Virus record (IMG/VR): IMGVR_UViG_3300025168_011805
Span: 6,558 to 70,557 of that record
DNA length: 64,000 nt
DNA from: a virus
Reading direction: 5' to 3' (one strand)
A program made the position numbers and the translations under genes. The notes beneath the pieces were generated by a model. The model searched no databases. It was not told where the DNA came from and saw only the letters and a program-made list of their open reading frames with translations. Shown piece after piece: positions 6,424-58,983 of the stretch. How positions within the stretch are numbered: position 1 is the first letter of the stretch; every line of letters starts with the position of its first letter.

Positions 6424-7263
6424 ATGATACTAATAGACAACAACCAAATTATCTTATCGAATATTTTCCAATCTATAAAATACAATAATGAAATGGATAT
6501 CGATTTTATTCGTCATCTAGTTCTGAACACTTACAGATCTTATAGAAAAAAGTTCTCTGCTGAATATGGTGAAATTATTATTTGTCACGACTCTCCTGAT
6601 TGCTGGAGAAAAAATGTATTTTCATATTACAAAGCACAGAGAAGAAAAAAGCAAAAAGACTCTGATGTTGATTGGAATAAAATTTTCGAATACTTACATA
6701 TCATTAGAAATGAAGTAGAAGAAAATCTACCCTACAAAAATATCTCAGCACAAAATACAGAAGCTGATGATGTCATTGCAGTTATAGCAAAACGATTCTA
6801 CAAACAGGAAAAGATTCTTATCATCTCTAGTGATAAAGACTTCCAACAACTTCAAAGATATGGAAATATAAAACAATACAGTCCAAGTAAAAAAGACTTT
6901 GTTGTGTGTGAAGATCCGGAAACATATCTTCTGGAACATGTGTTGAGGGGAGATTCGTCTGATGGAATCCCAAATGTTCTTTCGGACGATGATTGTTTCA
7001 TAGAGGAAACTAAAAAGCAACGTCCTCTAACAAAGAAGAAGCTCGCACAATATAAAGAAACCACAATAGGTGAAGATGATCCAATGTTTAAGAATTGGAA
7101 TAGAAATAAAGTCTTGGTTGATTTCGAAGAAATACCCAATGATATTCAGGATAGGATACATCTCAACTTTGATGATTCAACCTATGGTGATCGTTCGAAA
7201 ATTTTAAATTACTTTATAACCAAGAAATTAGTAAAGCTTGTTAATTATTTGGAGGATTTTTAA
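6424..7263 (+). CDS. rnh: T4 RNase H (5'-3' exonuclease, FEN family)
   Basis: MILIDNNQ, YKAQR, EADDVIA, SSDKDFQQL, GDSSDGIPN. Confidence 0.95.
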   Translation: MILIDNNQIILSNIFQSIKYNNEMDIDFIRHLVLNTYRSYRKKFSAEYGEIIICHDSPDCWRKNVFSYYKAQRRKKQKDSDVDWNKIFEYLHIIRNEVEENLPYKNISAQNTEADDVIAVIAKRFYKQEKILIISSDKDFQQLQRYGNIKQYSPSKKDFVVCEDPETYLLEHVLRGDSSDGIPNVLSDDDCFIEETKKQRPLTKKKLAQYKETTIGEDDPMFKNWNRNKVLVDFEEIPNDIQDRIHLNFDDSTYGDRSKILNYFITKKLVKLVNYLEDF

Positions 7264-33930: not shown

Positions 33931-33933
33931 TTG

Positions 33934-35358
33934 ATGTTTAAGCTTAAGGAAAAATATTTAATTGTTTCGACTTTCAATGAGCTACTGCCAGGCGGTTTGA
34001 TTGTAGAAACAACCGACGAGGAATGTGGTGAGCAATTCTCTCTCGGTGGTTTTTCTGTCAACACATTTAAAGTAAAAACTGAACAGGGTGATGTTTTTTG
34101 TTTTGATGGGTCACCTAGCAAATTAAAAGAAATCTTCTTACATGTTGATGATGATTTTGTTGAATCTTTAAACGTTGAATTTAGACTAACAAAGAATTTA
34201 TCTGAAGAATTAATTGAGAATCAAAGATTTAAATTATATCCTTTAGAAAAAGAAGATTATGTCGTTTCTCTAGATGAAGGAACTGATGAAATAAAATTTG
34301 TTGATTCAGAGGGAGTTGTTTTCTTATTCAAGGGATCTACTGAATTTATAGAAAGTTTGTTTACTCCAGTTATTGAAATGACTCCAGATGAAATAATTTC
34401 TGAATTGGCAGGTTCTGATGGATCTGTTGGGGAAACTGGATCAGAGGGACAACAAGGTGAAATTGGAGAACGTGGTCCAATTGGACGAGAAGGAAAACGA
34501 GGTCAACGCGGCGCTAAGGGCAATCCCGGAGAGCGTGGTGAACAGGGTGTACAAGGTGAGCAGGGTGTACAAGGTGAGCAGGGTGGACAAGGTGAGCAAG
34601 GTGAACGCGGAGAGCAGGGAGAGCGTGGAGAGCAGGGTGAGCAGGGTGAAAAGGGAGATCTCGGTGATAGAGGAAGCGATGGCAAAGACGGCATCGATGG
34701 TTTGGAAGGTCCACAAGGAAAAGGTGGGCGAGCAGGTAAAGACGGTAAAGACGGAAACGATGGAGTTGATGGGAAAGATGGAGTTGATGGGAAAGATGGA
34801 CGAGATGGATCAAAAGGAATCGCCGGAAAAAATGGATCTCCCGGAAAACCAGGTCCAGTAGGTCCCAAAGGACAACGAGGACTAAATGGTGAACAGGGCG
34901 ATCAAGGCGAAAAGGGTGATCAGGGTGATGTAGGTGATGTGGGTTTTGTCAACGCAAAGTATCCACTTACATATGACGCAGAGAAAAAAACAATATCCCT
35001 TGATCAAAAATCATTCGAACAACTTTTGTCTTTGCCGGGAACAGATCCCATGCTGGCTAGTAATTTAATAAACGCCATGTATGGAGGCGGGGGTGGCTTA
35101 GGTGCTCTCAAAGATGGCAAAAGATTACGAAAAGATATAACGGATCTTGACTTTACCGGAAAGCAAATCAACGCGGATGTGCAGCGAGAGGGAACTAGAG
35201 TAGAAGTTAGTTTGAATAAAGTCTCCAGAACCTTTTATAACACCCAAAGTGAAATAGAGGCACTTTCTGTGTCTGAATTTGTTGATGGGGATTTTCATGT
35301 CAATACCGATACAGGCTCCGTCTATGTTAGAAGTGGTGGATCATGGATAGAAATATGA
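33934..35358 (+). CDS. Collagen-like virion fibre protein
   Basis: About 60 uninterrupted Gly-X-Y triplets, GGGGG linker, C-terminal GDF..TDTGSVY..W module. Confidence 0.85.
34411..34950 (+). repeat. Collagen Gly-X-Y coding repeats (9- and 18-nt units such as ggtgagcag and gatggagttgatgggaaa)
   Basis: Direct reading of sequence and translation. Confidence 0.95.
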
Positions 35359-54050: not shown

Positions 54051-54251
54051 ATGAGTGCAAACACTAAAGATTGCCCGGTTTCGGGTTGTGGTAATGATGT
54101 AGTAGGTAAGTTTTTTGGAAAATTTGGAGTAACCCGATCAACTCTGGTTAGTCTTGCTCTTGTTCCCTTCGCGTGGGACGGAGTTCTTTGGTTCCGAGAT
54201 GCCATTTCGGCTGTCTGGACCGCAGTCACTGCTTGGAACATTGGCGGTTGA
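54051..54251 (+). CDS. Small membrane protein with CPxxxC
   Basis: AAGGAG RBS; hydrophobic/aromatic C-terminal half. Confidence 0.7.
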   Translation: MSANTKDCPVSGCGNDVVGKFFGKFGVTRSTLVSLALVPFAWDGVLWFRDAISAVWTAVTAWNIGG

Positions 54252-54274
54252 TAAACCATAACAGGAGAATACTT

Positions 54275-55432
54275 ATGAGTATTATTAAAATTGGCGCGAC
54301 ATGTCTCGCCCTATGCACTTGCGGAGTTGCAAGTGCAGATGATTCAGACATGATGGGTGACAACAATGTCACCCCCGAGATGATGCAGCAGCGAATGAAT
54401 CGTATGGTTGATCAAGGTATGATCACACCCGATATGATGCAGCAGCGAATGGATCGTATGGAGATGGGTGAAGCAGTTCGTTCGGATGCTTCCACTCGAA
54501 TTAGTCTTAGTCCTTCGACTGAAGGCTTTTCGTTGGATCTGGGTGGATTTATCCAGACAGGATACAGCTACAATGGCGGTGCAGATCTCGATGCTGAGTA
54601 TGGATTCTCAGTTGATCGTGCTCGTCTAATTCTATCTGGTGACTTTGGTAAGGATGCAAGTTACCTCCTGAGTGGACAGTGGAGTGATGTAACTTCCACG
54701 TTTGATCTTCTCGACGCTCGTGTTGATTTTAGAGCGTTTGGTGTTACCAATGTTCGAGTTGGTCAGTTCGTTCCTGCTTTCTATAGTGGTTTCGTCACTG
54801 ATCCTCGTTCTCTTATCACCAACAACTATAGCGTTTCTGCCCTTACATACGGACAGGGACGAGGTCAGGGTGTAGAACTTTCGGACTTCATTGTATCTGA
54901 TGTTGTTGAACTTTCTGCATTTTACACCAATGGTTTTGGTGACACTAATGGTGTTGACGCAGATAATGATTATGCAGTTGGTGCTCGCGCATCTGTCGGA
55001 CTCGGTGGTGGATTTTCCATCGGTGCTGGTTATGCATACAACAATAATAATGTAACGGATTACAGCAGTTATACTGTTGATCTCGAATACACTAGTGGTA
55101 AGCTCGATTTCAACGCTGCATGGATTGCAAACAACGAAACTGAGGATTGGGATAATTATTCCATCGTTGGTACTCTTGCATATCAGTGTCTGGACAACCT
55201 TCAGGGTTTTGTTCAGTATGAGTATGGTGCTCTTGGTGGTGTCAGCGACAAGCTGAATATTGCAACTATTGGTTGTAACTACACCATCCACGAGAATATC
55301 GTATGGACCAACACTGTTGGATATGCTTTCGAAGGTATTGACTCTGGTTTCAACACAGATAACACAGGTTGGCGTTCCAGTGCCGACGACGGACAGTATG
55401 TCGTTCGTAGTGTTATTCAGGTCAGTTTCTGA
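54275..55432 (+). CDS. Outer-membrane porin (phosphate-porin O/P-like beta-barrel)
   Basis: Signal peptide ending ASA, GF.V.RARL..SG, LLDA, RVGQF, amphipathic strands, C-terminal QVSF beta-signal; AGGAG RBS before ATG 54275. Confidence 0.85.
   Translation: MSIIKIGATCLALCTCGVASADDSDMMGDNNVTPEMMQQRMNRMVDQGMITPDMMQQRMDRMEMGEAVRSDASTRISLSPSTEGFSLDLGGFIQTGYSYNGGADLDAEYGFSVDRARLILSGDFGKDASYLLSGQWSDVTSTFDLLDARVDFRAFGVTNVRVGQFVPAFYSGFVTDPRSLITNNYSVSALTYGQGRGQGVELSDFIVSDVVELSAFYTNGFGDTNGVDADNDYAVGARASVGLGGGFSIGAGYAYNNNNVTDYSSYTVDLEYTSGKLDFNAAWIANNETEDWDNYSIVGTLAYQCLDNLQGFVQYEYGALGGVSDKLNIATIGCNYTIHENIVWTNTVGYAFEGIDSGFNTDNTGWRSSADDGQYVVRSVIQVSF
54369..54461 (+). repeat. Two ~39-nt direct repeats (54-nt period) encoding TP[ED]MMQQRM[ND]RM
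   Basis: tcacccccgagatgatgcagcagcgaatgaatcgtatgg / tcacacccgatatgatgcagcagcgaatggatcgtatgg. Confidence 0.9.
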
Positions 55433-55440
55433 AAAAAAAT

Positions 55441-55458
55441 ATCTTATAAATATAAGAT
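55441..55458 (+). promoter_or_regulatory. Late promoter TATAAATA (55445-55452) inside the palindrome ATCTTATA-AA-TATAAGAT
   Basis: Direct reading. Confidence 0.7.
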
Positions 55459-55459
55459 A

Positions 55460-55545
55460 ACTAAATCGCGGAGTGCAAAAGAGCTGGATCACCCTTTTCC
55501 CGCGAATAAGAGAACCCTTTACCTTTATTGGTGAGGGGTTTTCTC
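55460..55545 (+). ncRNA. Candidate small RNA A: hairpin displaying GCUGGAUCACC in its loop, followed by a second hairpin
   Basis: Stems tcgcgg/ccgcga and aaaag/ctttt; late promoter upstream; no ORF on + strand. Confidence 0.55.
55509..55544 (+). terminator. 15-bp hairpin (putative terminator of RNA A or the porin operon), followed by CATAAATA late promoter
   Basis: agagaaccctttacc-tttatt-ggtgaggggttttct with G-U pairs. Confidence 0.5.
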
Positions 55546-55568
55546 ATAAATAGTACCGGAGACTTATT

Positions 55569-56129
55569 ATGATAATAGCCGGTATTGACTACAGTTTAAA
55601 TGGTCCAGCAATTTGTGTTTTTAATTCAGATGAAGGTTTTACTTTCAATAATTGTTCTTTTTATTATCTGACAGATACAAAGAACCTAGCAAAAACATTT
55701 TTGTCTAGAATTCATGGGAAATTATTTGAGACATACAATCATGATTGTGAAAGGTATGATACCATATCAGAGTGGGCAGTTGAAATGTGTCAGGGGTGTG
55801 AACAAGTTGCTATTGAGGGCTATGCATATGCCGCAAAGGGTAGGGTTTTCAATATAGCAGAGAATACAGGGTTACTTAAGTATAAGTTTTTTCAACAGTC
55901 TGTGCCAATTGATGTGATTGCTCCGTCTGTGGTTAAAAAACTAGCTACCGGAAAGGGAAATGCTGATAAGACAGCGATGCATGACGCTTTTGTCAAGGAA
56001 ACAAAACACAATTTATTCAACCTGATAACTCCAAATAGAAAAGGTATAGGAAACCCTATATCAGACATAGTTGATTCATATTATGTTTGTAAAGGTCTTT
56101 ACTATGACATAATTTCACAGAATTCATAA
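55569..56129 (+). CDS. ruvC: RuvC-like Holliday junction resolvase
   Basis: GIDYS, AIEGY, AENTG, P..VKK.ATGKGNADK, DIVDSY. Confidence 0.88.
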   Translation: MIIAGIDYSLNGPAICVFNSDEGFTFNNCSFYYLTDTKNLAKTFLSRIHGKLFETYNHDCERYDTISEWAVEMCQGCEQVAIEGYAYAAKGRVFNIAENTGLLKYKFFQQSVPIDVIAPSVVKKLATGKGNADKTAMHDAFVKETKHNLFNLITPNRKGIGNPISDIVDSYYVCKGLYYDIISQNS

Positions 56130-56132
56130 ATA
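56125..56132 (+). promoter_or_regulatory. Late promoter variant CATAAATA
   Basis: 7/8 match; upstream of the 56159 ORF. Confidence 0.55.
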
Positions 56133-56158
56133 GTAATGTATCTTTAAGGAGCACAACA

Positions 56159-56509
56159 ATGAGATTAAACGAAGTCAACGATTCAATCACCAGAACTTAT
56201 GCACTTTGCAACGATGAAAAAGTGGGTAAAAAGTACAGAGGTAGATTTGAACGTGAATATGGCGGAACTTTTTTTAATTATAGAGGTAAGTGGATATGGG
56301 ACAAAAGAAGTTTAAACGAAACTGAGCTTTCTTTTATCGAAAAAGAAGGTGATCTGCCACTAATCAATGATTTAGCTAGTTCAGAGAAAACGAAGGAAAA
56401 GCCAGCGAAAAAAAGAAAGAAAAAAAGCACGTTTGGCTTCAAAAAGGACATATATAATAGTGACGTTTCAAAAGCTTTTGAAAATAAAAGCCTAGACGAA
56501 AAGGAGTGA
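56159..56509 (+). CDS. Hypothetical protein
   Basis: AAGGAG RBS; basic patch KKRKKK. Confidence 0.65.
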   Translation: MRLNEVNDSITRTYALCNDEKVGKKYRGRFEREYGGTFFNYRGKWIWDKRSLNETELSFIEKEGDLPLINDLASSEKTKEKPAKKRKKKSTFGFKKDIYNSDVSKAFENKSLDEKE

Positions 56510-56512
56510 ATT

Positions 56513-56644
56513 ATGTCACCAGAGCCATTTAGCGGAATTTTAGGAACTGTGTTTTATAGCGTATTATTATTCGCCGCCGGAGCTTGGATAGGACCTTCTT
56601 TTTGGACATGGGTGAAGGGTTACCTTCCTTGGACTAAACCGTAA
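56513..56644 (+). CDS. 43-aa single-pass membrane peptide (not in the ORF track)
   Basis: AAGGAG RBS; MSPEPFSGILGTVFYSVLLFAAGAWIGPSFWTWVKGYLPWTKP. Confidence 0.75.
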   Translation: MSPEPFSGILGTVFYSVLLFAAGAWIGPSFWTWVKGYLPWTKP

Positions 56645-56653
56645 ACGATAAAT

Positions 56654-56733
56654 CTGGCTTTACTGCCAAGTATCTTTTGCACACAGTCAGGAGGTGATCC
56701 AGCACTTTCCCCTATTTACTCGCATAAAGCCAG
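56654..56733 (+). ncRNA. Candidate structured RNA B with orphan 15-nt 16S-complementary sequence AGGAGGTGATCCAGC
   Basis: Outer stem ctggcttta/taaagccag plus tgc/gca and agta/tact; loop holds the extended SD with no start codon at RBS spacing. Confidence 0.6.
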
Positions 56734-56737
56734 TGTT

Positions 56738-56770
56738 TGGGCCCCGTTTACGGGGCCCATTCTTTTTTTT
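56738..56770 (+). terminator. Strong intrinsic terminator
   Basis: tgggccccg-ttta-cggggccca followed by a T-tract. Confidence 0.92.
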
Positions 56771-56777
56771 ATAAATA
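56770..56777 (+). promoter_or_regulatory. Late promoter TATAAATA
   Basis: Exact consensus upstream of the 727-aa ORF. Confidence 0.75.
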
Positions 56778-56799
56778 GAAGTAGTCTTTGGAGTAAAGA

Positions 56800-58983
56800 A
56801 TGTCTGATTATTCAACAAAAAAACCCATATTTGAAGCAGATTGGTTTGATCCGATGGAATTTTTAGAATTTTTGCAGTTAGACGAAGCGAACCCAATATC
56901 GAAATCATTTGCTGATAAAGAAGCTCTAGATAAAGAAAAAGCAAAAGAAGATGCTAGAGCTGTTGGTGGTGACAAAAAAGACGTTGATAGCGCCAGAAAG
57001 CGTGTAGAGAGAAAAGCATCAGAGCAACAAGAAAAGACAAACCCTTGGAAGGGGGTTATTGTTGTAAAAACTTTGGATGACAACAAAACTAGATTGATTC
57101 CAAAAACTGATTACGAACCAAATAAACATGAACTCCTATATGGACGAGTCCCTGGTCAGAGAAACAAACCAGAAGTAACTCCAAACGCAGCAAGAGAAAT
57201 TTCCAGAAGACCTGATTTCGAAGCAACAAAAACATCCAACAGACTTCTGGGTAATGTAGAGAAAACAGAAGATCCATCAGCTCCCGAAGTCGCCACACAA
57301 GAAGGCGAAGTTGCTGATGACATTATGGATTCTCAGGAACAAAAAAGAATTCCATCAAACGGAAAAGAAATAACATCAGCAGGATCAGTTTATCCTGATT
57401 GGGATCATGAATCAGAAGACATGGCTTCAAGCATAGCGAGCACATTCAACTCTGTGAACGGAGGCAAGATAGGTGATGGGATGTCTCCATCTCTTAAGAA
57501 CAACATGGAAGAGAGCGAAACATTAGAACCATCTGCTATTCGAGTTGTTCAGCAAATACAGGATGATTTAAGAGGAAGTTGGGTGGCTAAGCCAGTCAAC
57601 AAAGAAACAGGATCAATCTCTCCAGAGTGGGCATCATTGGGTGGTGATGATCCTTCATCCAAGTCTCAGATAGTATTCGAGGGTGATTCACAAGAGGAAG
57701 TTGTCCGGGCCTCGGTAAGGATTGGAGAAACTCCAATCTTACTGGAAAAAGAAGGCGAAGCCTTAGCCTTGTTTTCTTCCACTGCATTGAAACTAAAAGA
57801 AAATATCTTATTGAACCCTGCTACCAAAAAACAGACAAAAGCTGTATCAGAAAAAATGAGAGATTATGTTATAAACACTAAGCCTGAAGTGAGATTCAAT
57901 AACCAAATCCAAATTGATAAAAATAGGTTCTCTAAGGAAAATGTAGAGAATTTACACACAGAACTAAAGTCCCATCTCGAAGATATATTTGCAACTAACG
58001 AGGAGTTCAAGAAAGCTTTAGTTTACGAAGAATTAACTGGACAAGACAAATTTGGTTTTGACAATCCTTCTTCGGTTACTCATATATTATCGGCAAATAA
58101 AGATGGAACAAGCGCACATTTATCAAAATTAAACGAAACTTATATTAACAAAATCATCAATGATGTAAAGGTAAACATAAGATTTGGTATTGACGATGAC
58201 ATACGAGAATCTAGAACACCCGGAAGTTTCTGGGCTGCTATGAGTGTATCTGATGATATGAAAGAAGACATATGTCATCACTTTACTGATTTACTGGCAG
58301 AGAGTGACTCAGACACAGAAACTTATTTCAACCAAGCGACATCTGATATCTCTGATGATCCATTCCGAATGTTTGAATTTTTAGGTTTGACCGTAAATGA
58401 AATAAGTTCCAATCAACTTAACTTAGCTAATTATAACACAAATGAGTCTGGTGAGTATACGAAAGTTCAAACTAGAGATAGAGTATTTTATGTTCCTGTA
58501 GAGAAGGACACACAATACTATGAAGCAGAGAATGATGAAATCCCTCAGCTCACTACTAACGAAGAGTATGAGAGAGATTACAGAAAAGAATATGATAGAC
58601 ATCATAGCAGCAAAAAAGCAATTCAAGCTAGAGGCAAACGAACAACAAATAGAAGAAGAGCTATTCGTAAGGGTGTAGTGAGTAAAGGTGATGGGGTTGA
58701 TATTGATCACAAGGATGGAAATCCCATGAACAATTCATCTACCAACTTAAGAAAAAGAAGTGCCGCATCAAACAGATCTGACAACAAACATAAACCAGGC
58801 GAAACTCAAGATCATAGCAAAAGACTCAAAGAAGAGGGTGGTGCCGGAGACATCGGAACCTACGATCTTCTAAAAAAATACATAGAAGACACTCCTTTTA
58901 TGGAAGTTGACGCGGAATTGAATAAACTTTTTAAAAAAAATTACGATAGAGTAAAATCTATAAAAAAAGAATCTCCGAAGTGA
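56800..58983 (+). CDS. Large late protein with C-terminal HNH domain (possible internal virion protein)
   Basis: RDYRKEY..H..R..R..R...GDG.DIDHKDGNPMNN...NL......NR HNH motif; late promoter; acidic LxE sites. Confidence 0.75.
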   Translation: MSDYSTKKPIFEADWFDPMEFLEFLQLDEANPISKSFADKEALDKEKAKEDARAVGGDKKDVDSARKRVERKASEQQEKTNPWKGVIVVKTLDDNKTRLIPKTDYEPNKHELLYGRVPGQRNKPEVTPNAAREISRRPDFEATKTSNRLLGNVEKTEDPSAPEVATQEGEVADDIMDSQEQKRIPSNGKEITSAGSVYPDWDHESEDMASSIASTFNSVNGGKIGDGMSPSLKNNMEESETLEPSAIRVVQQIQDDLRGSWVAKPVNKETGSISPEWASLGGDDPSSKSQIVFEGDSQEEVVRASVRIGETPILLEKEGEALALFSSTALKLKENILLNPATKKQTKAVSEKMRDYVINTKPEVRFNNQIQIDKNRFSKENVENLHTELKSHLEDIFATNEEFKKALVYEELTGQDKFGFDNPSSVTHILSANKDGTSAHLSKLNETYINKIINDVKVNIRFGIDDDIRESRTPGSFWAAMSVSDDMKEDICHHFTDLLAESDSDTETYFNQATSDISDDPFRMFEFLGLTVNEISSNQLNLANYNTNESGEYTKVQTRDRVFYVPVEKDTQYYEAENDEIPQLTTNEEYERDYRKEYDRHHSSKKAIQARGKRTTNRRRAIRKGVVSKGDGVDIDHKDGNPMNNSSTNLRKRSAASNRSDNKHKPGETQDHSKRLKEEGGAGDIGTYDLLKKYIEDTPFMEVDAELNKLFKKNYDRVKSIKKESPK

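Follow-up and report, generated by a model that had tools for sequence, protein, structure and literature searches.

A start-less Shine–Dalgarno element in the 3′ untranslated region of an uncultured marine T4-like phage, and a phage-encoded hairpin complementary to it

STAB-SD of Bacillus thuringiensis cry3A is a Shine–Dalgarno (SD)-like sequence with no start codon; it presumably binds the 30S subunit and influences what becomes of the RNA. Natural antisense pairs such as hok/sok and CopA/CopT start their interaction by loop–loop kissing, and the T4 genes e, soc, 25 and 38 provide examples of translational control on late transcripts and of split ribosome-binding sites (RBSs). Ribosome-binding extended SDs that do not lead to efficient translation are known from one cellular family, the small mRNAs rreB and rreR of alpha-proteobacteria, described by Hahn et al. 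(2016, PMC5711450) as stand-alone, weakly translated cellular transcripts of open function; rreB binds the 30S subunit through a 17-nt SD, as co-sedimentation shows. In T4-like genomes, terminator–promoter modules termed PeSLs are described as shuffling as cassettes (PMC4122927). Here we analyse a 64,000-nt stretch (the window) of IMG/VR virus record IMGVR_UViG_3300025168_011805, positions 6,558 to 70,557, in which a 15-mer, AGGAGGTGATCCAGC, forms the core of an element that we call E2. We conclude that E2 is a structured 3′ untranslated region (3′UTR) RNA that is derived from an extended SD site and kept under selection.

The 15-mer has a single site, at 56689–56703 on the + strand (the strand of E1, E2 and the features adjoining them given below, unless stated). 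It is unique in the window even at up to two mismatches (shuffle expectation 0.05), and its exact sequence occurs once in the whole 70.5-kb virus record. It contains AGGAGG and has the purine-rich complementarity to the 16S rRNA 3′ tail of an SD. We take the whole 15-mer to be the complement of the 16S 3′ end, relying on the general 16S sequence and a common reverse primer, not on the host's own 16S. The site lies 35 nt upstream of a terminator-like hairpin (56738–56759) and its T-run, within the 155-nt spacer that separates an open reading frame (ORF) for a small membrane protein of 43 aa (56513–56644) from a 727-aa ORF (56800–58983).

A preliminary description of this site, made from the sequence alone, had called it an orphan with no gene to serve. 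This holds for the window lineage: no ATG, GTG or TTG stands 5–10 nt behind the 15-mer in the window, and no ORF of at least 20 aa starts behind it there, even when CTG, ATT, ATC and ATA starts are allowed. It was likewise right that genes here use short RBSs. SD matches at the phage's own ORF starts are 3–7 nt long in 67 of the 69 scanned (none in the other 2), and the 15-mer is therefore exceptional here: on the assumed 16S sequence, no SD stronger than E2 is possible, and the SDs used elsewhere by this phage are weak. The accompanying rarity figure stands for one specific 15-mer, yet with about 250,000 windows scanned some chance cases are expected, and the weight therefore rests on conservation, which was tested and found.

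To survey homologous loci we used the upstream 43-aa ORF as the anchor, and thus did not presuppose the motif. Ten anchor loci were obtained first; 80 of 121 confirmed stretches were then kept from metagenomes and 80 of 189 from viral contigs. Pooled and including the window, there were 169 loci with 110 distinct downstream sequences. The preliminary description had regarded absence from homologous loci as fatal to its claim; instead, the motif GG(A/G)GGTG(A/G)T stands within 110 nt of the stop codon in 31 of the 110 distinct loci (75 lack it and 4 are too short to judge). Because it recurs at this rate in motif-blind scans, the 15-mer is not a product of chance. All near relatives carry the exact 15-mer in loop flanks that are only about half identical, and some loci carry degenerate forms (for example TGAAGGTAATCC in L275, L287 and L289).

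The 31 motif-bearing loci fall into two types. In 11 of them (counting L257/L405, which lie at a contig end) the element serves as a working RBS, and the next gene has its ATG 10–19 nt after GGAGG. L366 and L387 match the 15-mer at 14 of 15 positions, the first base differing, followed by a single c and the ATG; the L087 family has the same layout with the exact 15-mer. The distance from GGAGG to ATG is 12 nt in L382 and 15–19 nt in clade B, L277/L281 and L247. The other 20 loci, the window among them, are of orphan type: no start codon follows the motif, and a terminator leads instead to TATAAATA or TATACATA, a new short RBS and the gene. The terminator is found at this place in every orphan-type locus, with a different sequence in each, and the gene after E2 is orthologous throughout. 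A start codon about 4–12 nt downstream, as expected of an SD, is thus missing in the window and present in 11 of the 31 motif-bearing loci; the preliminary description did not foresee the ORF that begins immediately behind the element in these sister loci. Since the same element is a working RBS in sister lineages, the orphan is an ex-RBS, severed from its gene by a terminator/late-promoter cassette.

A plain scan for the 15-mer in viral contigs returned at least 117 stretches, hence no frequency is drawn from it. It supplied the first homologue, L091, which has a homologous small ORF and the same motif in an otherwise diverged spacer. In the same material, L087, L135, L168, L173 and L176 show the 15-mer, a c and ATG before a cytidylyltransferase-like gene and are RBS-type relatives. 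Among the matches listed, other phage groups use the 15-mer as a working RBS with GTG directly behind it (L102, L114, L118, L124, L150, L159, L172, L175, L195 and L200). Also among the matches listed, about 18 of 119 are high-GC phage loci with AGGAGGTGATCCAGCATCT inside apparent coding sequence (..GGDPAS..) and diverged flanks (L090, L093, L094, L098, L100, L101, L107, L109, L123, L132, L151, L153, L157, L171, L174, L190, L202 and L203); such nucleotide-level conservation of an SD-like 19-mer within a gene may point to an internal start or to a stimulator of frameshifting. Four alternative anchors were uninformative: the 116-aa ORF found no relatives, the regions downstream of RuvC relatives were not syntenic, the 727-aa protein retrieved mostly HNH domains rather than homologous loci, and the porin-like protein used by itself found one close relative.

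The preliminary description had placed the 15-mer in a structured 3′UTR just before a terminator, and both the fold and the terminator were found. E2 is enclosed by a closing stem with a 5′ arm at 56654–56666 (CTGGCTTTA.CTG) and a 3′ arm at 56722–56733 (GCA.TAAAGCCAG), seen in the RNAfold minimum-free-energy structure and in a flank–flank duplex test. The enclosed loop holds, upstream of the motif, a conserved block present in clade A only (CTTTTGCACACAG, 56674–56686) and, downstream, a conserved pyrimidine block (CCCCTATTT, 56709–56717), which together with 56703–56709 can weakly pair with the SD core to leave the loop AUCCAG. A closing stem surrounds the motif in every orphan-type lineage, with stem sequences unrelated between lineages: CTGGCTTTA / TAAAGCCAG in the window, GTGTCGAGT / ACTCGACAC in L204, CCCCACTGGCG / CGCTAGTGGG in L211, AACCCCACCGATTTTCAT / ATGAAAATCGGTGGGGTT in L364 and ATGATCCGTGTTTC / GAAACACGGATCAT in L236. 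Unconstrained RNAfold gave the stem in 16 of the 18 loci folded. In all 20 orphan-type loci the flank–flank duplex was stronger than the shuffle mean (300 shuffles each), and in 18 of them no more than 6 shuffles reached the observed energy; the weakest results were those of the window (17/300) and L216 (23/300). The fold of the window's 141-nt spacer has z = −3.9. As the MAFFT/RNAalifold alignment mis-aligns the window's stem, support for the stem rests on the per-locus duplex test.

No reading frame is conserved through E2, because its spacings and indels are not multiples of three: among relatives the distance from stop codon to motif is 44, 48, 50, 51 or 52 nt, and the motif and the conserved CCCTATTT block are offset from each other by a 1-nt indel. 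Substitutions within the 15-mer were read from an unbiased best-match scan of loci scoring at least 12/15. At positions 2–12 the sole differences are A4-to-G in the L218 lineage and A9-to-G in the L364/L367/L383/L406 group (L211 and L213, which score below 12/15, likewise carry A9-to-G), and both keep a G·U pair with an unchanging partner; positions 1 and 13–15 vary freely. The wobble pattern is suggestive of selection for pairing with such a partner. Pairing with 16S, as the preliminary description proposed, is the best general explanation of these wobble-keeping changes, with the reservation that the phage itself encodes a rival partner.

That partner was met in a search of the window for further long matches, which found GGTGATCCAGC on the minus strand at 55483–55493, reading GCTGGATCACC on the + strand. 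GCTGGATCACC is complementary to 56693–56703 of E2 and presumably identical to the 16S 3′ tail region. It lies in the loop of a hairpin that we call E1 (55466–55505; CGCGG.../...CCGCG, inner AAAAG/CUUUU), 1.2 kb upstream of E2 and in the 3′UTR of a porin-like β-barrel gene (54173–55432; weak Pfam matches to Porin_4 and Porin_O_P). A terminator-like hairpin follows E1 (55509–55544), and TATAAATA precedes it at 55445–55452, where it could start a short late E1 transcript. The spacer between the porin-like gene and RuvC has a fold with z = −4.2, and E1 is conserved in L084/L215. An unbiased scan anchored on the porin-like C-terminus gave 30 loci, of which 14, with 9 distinct sequences among them, have E1 behind the gene and 16 lack it. 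In all 14 it comes directly after the stop codon and ahead of a terminator, GGATCAC lying within the loop or next to it and the 3′ side being rich in pyrimidines; the variants are GCTGGATCACCCTT, ...CCTCT, ACTGGATCACCCTCT, GTTGGATCACCCTCT, GCTGGATCACTTTC, GGGATCACCTCCAG and TTTGGATCACCTCTTC. The porin-like protein itself, which ends in ..SF, is conserved in related marine T4-like contigs, and its gene holds a 39-nt direct repeat (54369–54407 and 54423–54461).

E1 and E2 are complementary over 16 nt with one mismatch in the window (record G000), over 13 nt, or 17 with wobbles, in G001/G019, over 27 of 28 nt in G002 and over about 25 nt including wobbles in G016. The flanks of the shared core vary between records yet match within each (in G002, an E2 C15-to-T is met by a G-to-A in E1). 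Partner co-variation is thus seen in four records (G000, G001/G019, G002 and G016), or about three independent cases because G002 and G016 are related; in these two, the CTTTTGCACACAG block also takes part in the complementarity. Compared with shuffled E1, the duplex energies are lower by about 3, 4 and 10 standard deviations. Both partners expose their complementary parts in loops, as kissing hairpins do (AGCUGGAUCACC in E1 and the local loop AUCCAG in E2). The porin-like and small-ORF genes share a strand in the window and lie on opposite strands in G001, G002 and G016; in all four records, the porin-gene transcript carries E1 in its 16S-like sense, and the small-ORF transcript carries E2 in its SD sense. 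That transcript sense is kept despite changed DNA orientation points to RNA–RNA pairing rather than to a DNA repeat of fixed orientation. E2 also occurs without E1: the porin-like gene and E2 are both present in G006 (87% complete), G007 and G012, with a different hairpin at the place of E1, and no complement to E2 was found elsewhere in these three records. A second complement of 9 nt between the two elements (GTGCAAAAG at 55474–55482 and CTTTTGCAC at 56674–56682) is not collinear with the 11-nt one, with a chance estimate of about 1 in 100.

E2 is represented in RNA libraries. Parts of 55400–56900 are held by 17 marine metatranscriptome runs from 14 studies, four of which runs were examined. 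RNA contigs of two studies, covering 56472–56733 and 56485–56729, join the small ORF to E2 and stop just short of the terminator hairpin; this hints, weakly, at E2 being the 3′UTR of the small-ORF mRNA. One further RNA contig (55478–55728) covers the 3′ half of E1.

Our favoured reading, held tentatively, is that E2 is a start-less docking site for the 30S subunit that is antagonised, in the window's clade, by E1 as a mimic of the 16S tail. The early transcript of the 43-aa membrane-protein gene would carry E2 at its 3′ end. A cassette of terminator, late promoter and new short RBS parts E2 from the next gene, yet E2 has stayed intact in a large stem-closed loop. There it may pair with the single-stranded 16S 3′ tail and dock 30S subunits or ribosomes without starting translation, as rreB does. 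Docking might stabilise or otherwise control the transcript, with RNA stability, ribosome capture after termination on the small ORF and timing as candidate roles, and the E1 loop, by copying the 16S tail, would compete with the ribosome for E2 through loop–loop pairing. We count in favour of this reading that E2 is kept without a start codon in 20 orphan loci and that it persists in G006, G007 and G012, where E1 is lacking, together with the closing stem, the homology to a real RBS, the wobble-keeping substitutions, E1 and its co-variation with E2, the RNA contigs and the rreB precedent.

Several points weigh against this reading. The 75 of 110 distinct homologous loci without the motif make it dispensable for the gene pair. 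For positions 12–15 of the 15-mer to pair, helix 45 of the mature 30S subunit would need to be invaded; these positions may serve E1 pairing instead. The window's SD core can be partly masked by the local hairpin, the L273 lineage has a non-wobble change at position 11, and the wobble pattern, built on only two or three independent events, is not decisive. The RNA contigs have a depth of 2–4 and show neither strand nor ends, the parts of 55400–56900 that they leave uncovered are uninformative, and carry-over of DNA is possible. What a phage would gain by docking ribosomes in a 3′UTR just before a terminator is not obvious, and 30S binding by E2 is argued from sequence and the rreB precedent, using a general rather than the host 16S. 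Overexpression of rreB is reported to have no growth effect (PMC5711450), which argues against simple ribosome titration.

The strongest competitor, which we consider unlikely, though less so than any other, is that E1 and E2 form an antisense RNA pair of the phage whose mutual pairing is the selected function in this clade, E2 resembling an SD only by descent and E1 resembling the 16S tail only through the need to complement E2. Possible effects would be mutual control of the two 3′UTRs, RNase III processing or the timing of early and late transcripts. The complementary loops, the 13–28 nt of complementarity with co-varying flanks in four records, the duplex energies given above and an orientation that tracks transcripts and not DNA all suit such a pair, as does the extra conserved clade A block, GCACAC(A/G)G, which is paired in G002 and G016. 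It fits less well that G006 and G007, with the porin-like gene and no E1, keep an orphan E2 with 12–14 nt of 16S complementarity, or that the window's AGGAGG core is perfectly kept though E1 there pairs poorly with it. Matching changes in E1 and E2 could also stem from gene conversion between DNA repeats, and the match in the window, taken by itself, is no better than chance allows (blast E 0.48; 165 inverted pairs).

In the boldest reading, which we regard as improbable, the two RNAs would make up a module directed at the docking tail of the host ribosome, with the ultra-strong, start-less SD decoy E2 capturing 30S subunits and the mimic E1 releasing or blocking it, giving a switch, timed by the phage, of SD-dependent translation or of what happens to early mRNA. 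A different proposal of the preliminary description, that the 15-mer acts as an antisense to 16S and affects its maturation, found no specific support.

A further reading is that E2 is the old RBS of the next gene, stranded by insertion of a terminator–promoter module and now functionless. Its homology to a working RBS, the loss or original lack of the motif in 75 of 110 distinct loci and degenerate forms such as TGAAGGTAATCC are in line with a relic, as is the cassette shuffling described for T4-like phages (PMC4122927). We nevertheless think this very doubtful: the orphan is found in several small-ORF clades with 10–14 nt of complementarity kept from position 2 onwards while loop and stem have diverged beyond alignment, and a co-varying closing stem around a dead site is unexpected. 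Still harder to sustain is action at the DNA level, with E1 and E2 as repeats for recombination, PeSL-like modular shuffling or protein binding. Both elements adjoin terminator/promoter modules, both contain GATC and they are inverted repeats in the window, but DNA orientation changes between genomes while transcript sense is kept, both E1 and E2 have co-varying RNA stems, and the variation preserves wobble pairs, which matter to RNA only. Weakest of all, and scarcely credible, is a hidden RBS for a micro-ORF or non-canonical start, or read-through of the small ORF's stop codon: the frame past the TAA is open (72 codons from an ATA start, 56648–56866) and tiny ORFs can follow extended SDs in rreB/rreR (PMC5711450), but none of seven start-codon types follows the motif, the variable stop-to-motif distance and the 1-nt indel between motif and CCCTATTT leave no conserved frame, and the would-be peptides are unrelated.

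Downstream of E2, the intrinsic terminator (hairpin 56738–56759 with its T-run, 56738–56770 in all) is overlapped by TATAAATA at 56770–56777, a motif that also precedes several other window genes and that we take to be the T4-type late-promoter consensus. A short RBS (GGAG) and the 727-aa gene follow (56790–58983). The PeSL-type order of stem-loop, promoter, SD and start codon of the next gene is thus found at 56738–56802, with a promoter motif of late type, and such a module plausibly accounts for the separation of the old RBS from its gene. The next gene in L216 encodes a cytidylyltransferase-like N-terminal domain (E 0.0034, below the Pfam cutoff) and a long C-terminal part. The window's 727-aa protein aligns to that C-terminal part only (34% identity, E 2e-39), does not have the cytidylyltransferase-like domain and, towards its C-terminal end, has an HNH-like motif (residues 588–675); by sequence, the protein looks like the outcome of loss of the transferase domain and possible gain of an endonuclease module.

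Judged by eye, the terminators behind the orphan element in most of the lineages looked at (L216, L218, L220, L346, L367, L383, L401 and clade D, but not the window) have a purine-rich, SD-like 5′ arm, GGAGAG or AGGAGGGG, and a CUCUCC- or CCCUCC-like 3′ arm, which may be meaningful or mere local terminator style. Four further ideas about the locus were tried and dropped. Masking of the next gene's RBS by the loop was suggested by TTTACTC (56715–56721) facing GAGTAAA (56791–56797) and by a similar 6+2 match in L216; the match is absent from L364 and L401 and is put down to chance. For an antiterminator switch, no complement to the terminator's 5′ arm was seen; a docked 30S subunit would not directly occlude the terminator, as the SD lies 34–45 nt away; and an attP-like core or primer contamination as the origin of the 15-mer found no support.

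The window, which comes from an uncultured marine phage of T4-like type, has genes for a T4-type replication set (DNA polymerase, UvsX-like recombinase, DnaB-like helicase, primase, clamp loader and SbcC-like nuclease) together with ribonucleotide reductase, a RuvC-like resolvase and the porin-like β-barrel protein; the nearest cultured relatives of its RuvC, at about 40% identity, are T4-like phages of Stenotrophomonas, Pelagibacter, Caulobacter and Pseudomonas, and contigs related to the window derive from marine samples. The 43-aa ORF belongs to no Pfam or PHROG family and has no tblastn match among cultured phages. A BLAST search of 55500–58000 against cultured phages, in near and distant modes, gave no match at the DNA level, and exact GGAGGTGATCC is absent from Syn9, DLP6, Mosig and Cr30. 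ARAGORN found no tRNA or tmRNA in the window; Rfam gave 0 matches at the gathering score and, at relaxed thresholds, a best match to AniS (19.8 bits against 50 required) that covers the terminator only. Elsewhere, 9765–29887 holds about 25 same-strand ORFs of 200–330 aa with overlapping stops and starts, one of which matches a nucleotide-sugar epimerase; with nearby ORFs that match an aminotransferase and a glycosyltransferase, this run may be a large sugar-modification block. A collagen-like tail-fibre protein is encoded at 33931–35358, with 9-nt periodic repeats (20 copies at 34501–34946).

Abundant uncultured marine phages thus show the same element both as a working RBS and as an orphan, a natural experiment that indicates selection for something beyond starting translation. 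If E1 does compete with ribosomes for the SD, phages would have a new viral way of tuning translation or RNA decay, a 16S-tail mimic that is encoded by a virus and acts in trans would represent a novel type of regulator, and E1/E2 would be a ready-made orthogonal SD/anti-SD regulator pair. We found no phage element like E2 and no 16S-tail mimic like E1 in the literature searched (open-access papers and bioRxiv), and the nearest described systems each share some of its features.

The nearest precedent is rreB/rreR. Like E2, these RNAs, as presented in PMC5711450, have extended complementarity to the 16S 3′ end (16–17 nt in their case) downstream of AGGAGG that is partly buried in a conserved hairpin. 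Their complement ends in the G of a GTG that opens a conserved ORF of 14–18 codons, whereas E2, at 15 nt, falls short of their minimum of 16 nt and has neither a GTG nor a conserved frame. E2 also differs from the description given there in being phage-borne, in a 3′UTR, inside a closing stem and accompanied by a phage-encoded complementary hairpin. PeSL cassettes (Comeau et al. 2014, PMC4122927) share the layout of the 56738–56802 module; as that paper presents them, they have early promoters of σ70 type and no 16S-complementary element, in contrast to the late-type TATAAATA found here. STAB-SD, the parallel drawn in the preliminary description, shares with E2 an SD-like sequence that has no start codon and differs from it in place: E2 follows the stop codon of the small ORF, to which RNA contigs join it, and lies where a transcript ends, with 35 nt between it and a terminator, in a phage with a porin-like outer-membrane gene, whereas STAB-SD is a stabiliser in the 5′UTR of a gene of a Gram-positive host, near the 5′ end, protecting the RNA downstream. 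With hok/sok and CopA/CopT, E1 and E2 have in common two hairpins with complementary loops, co-varying partners and adjoining terminators; they differ in being encoded by different loci, with 1.2 to about 10 kb between them, and in that the paired sequence is the SD/16S-tail pair itself. As in T4 e, soc, 25 and 38, RNA structure near an SD and the choice between early and late promoters are brought together at one locus; there they decide translation and the SD serves the adjacent gene, whereas here a strong SD is placed on an early transcript and late transcripts start downstream of it.

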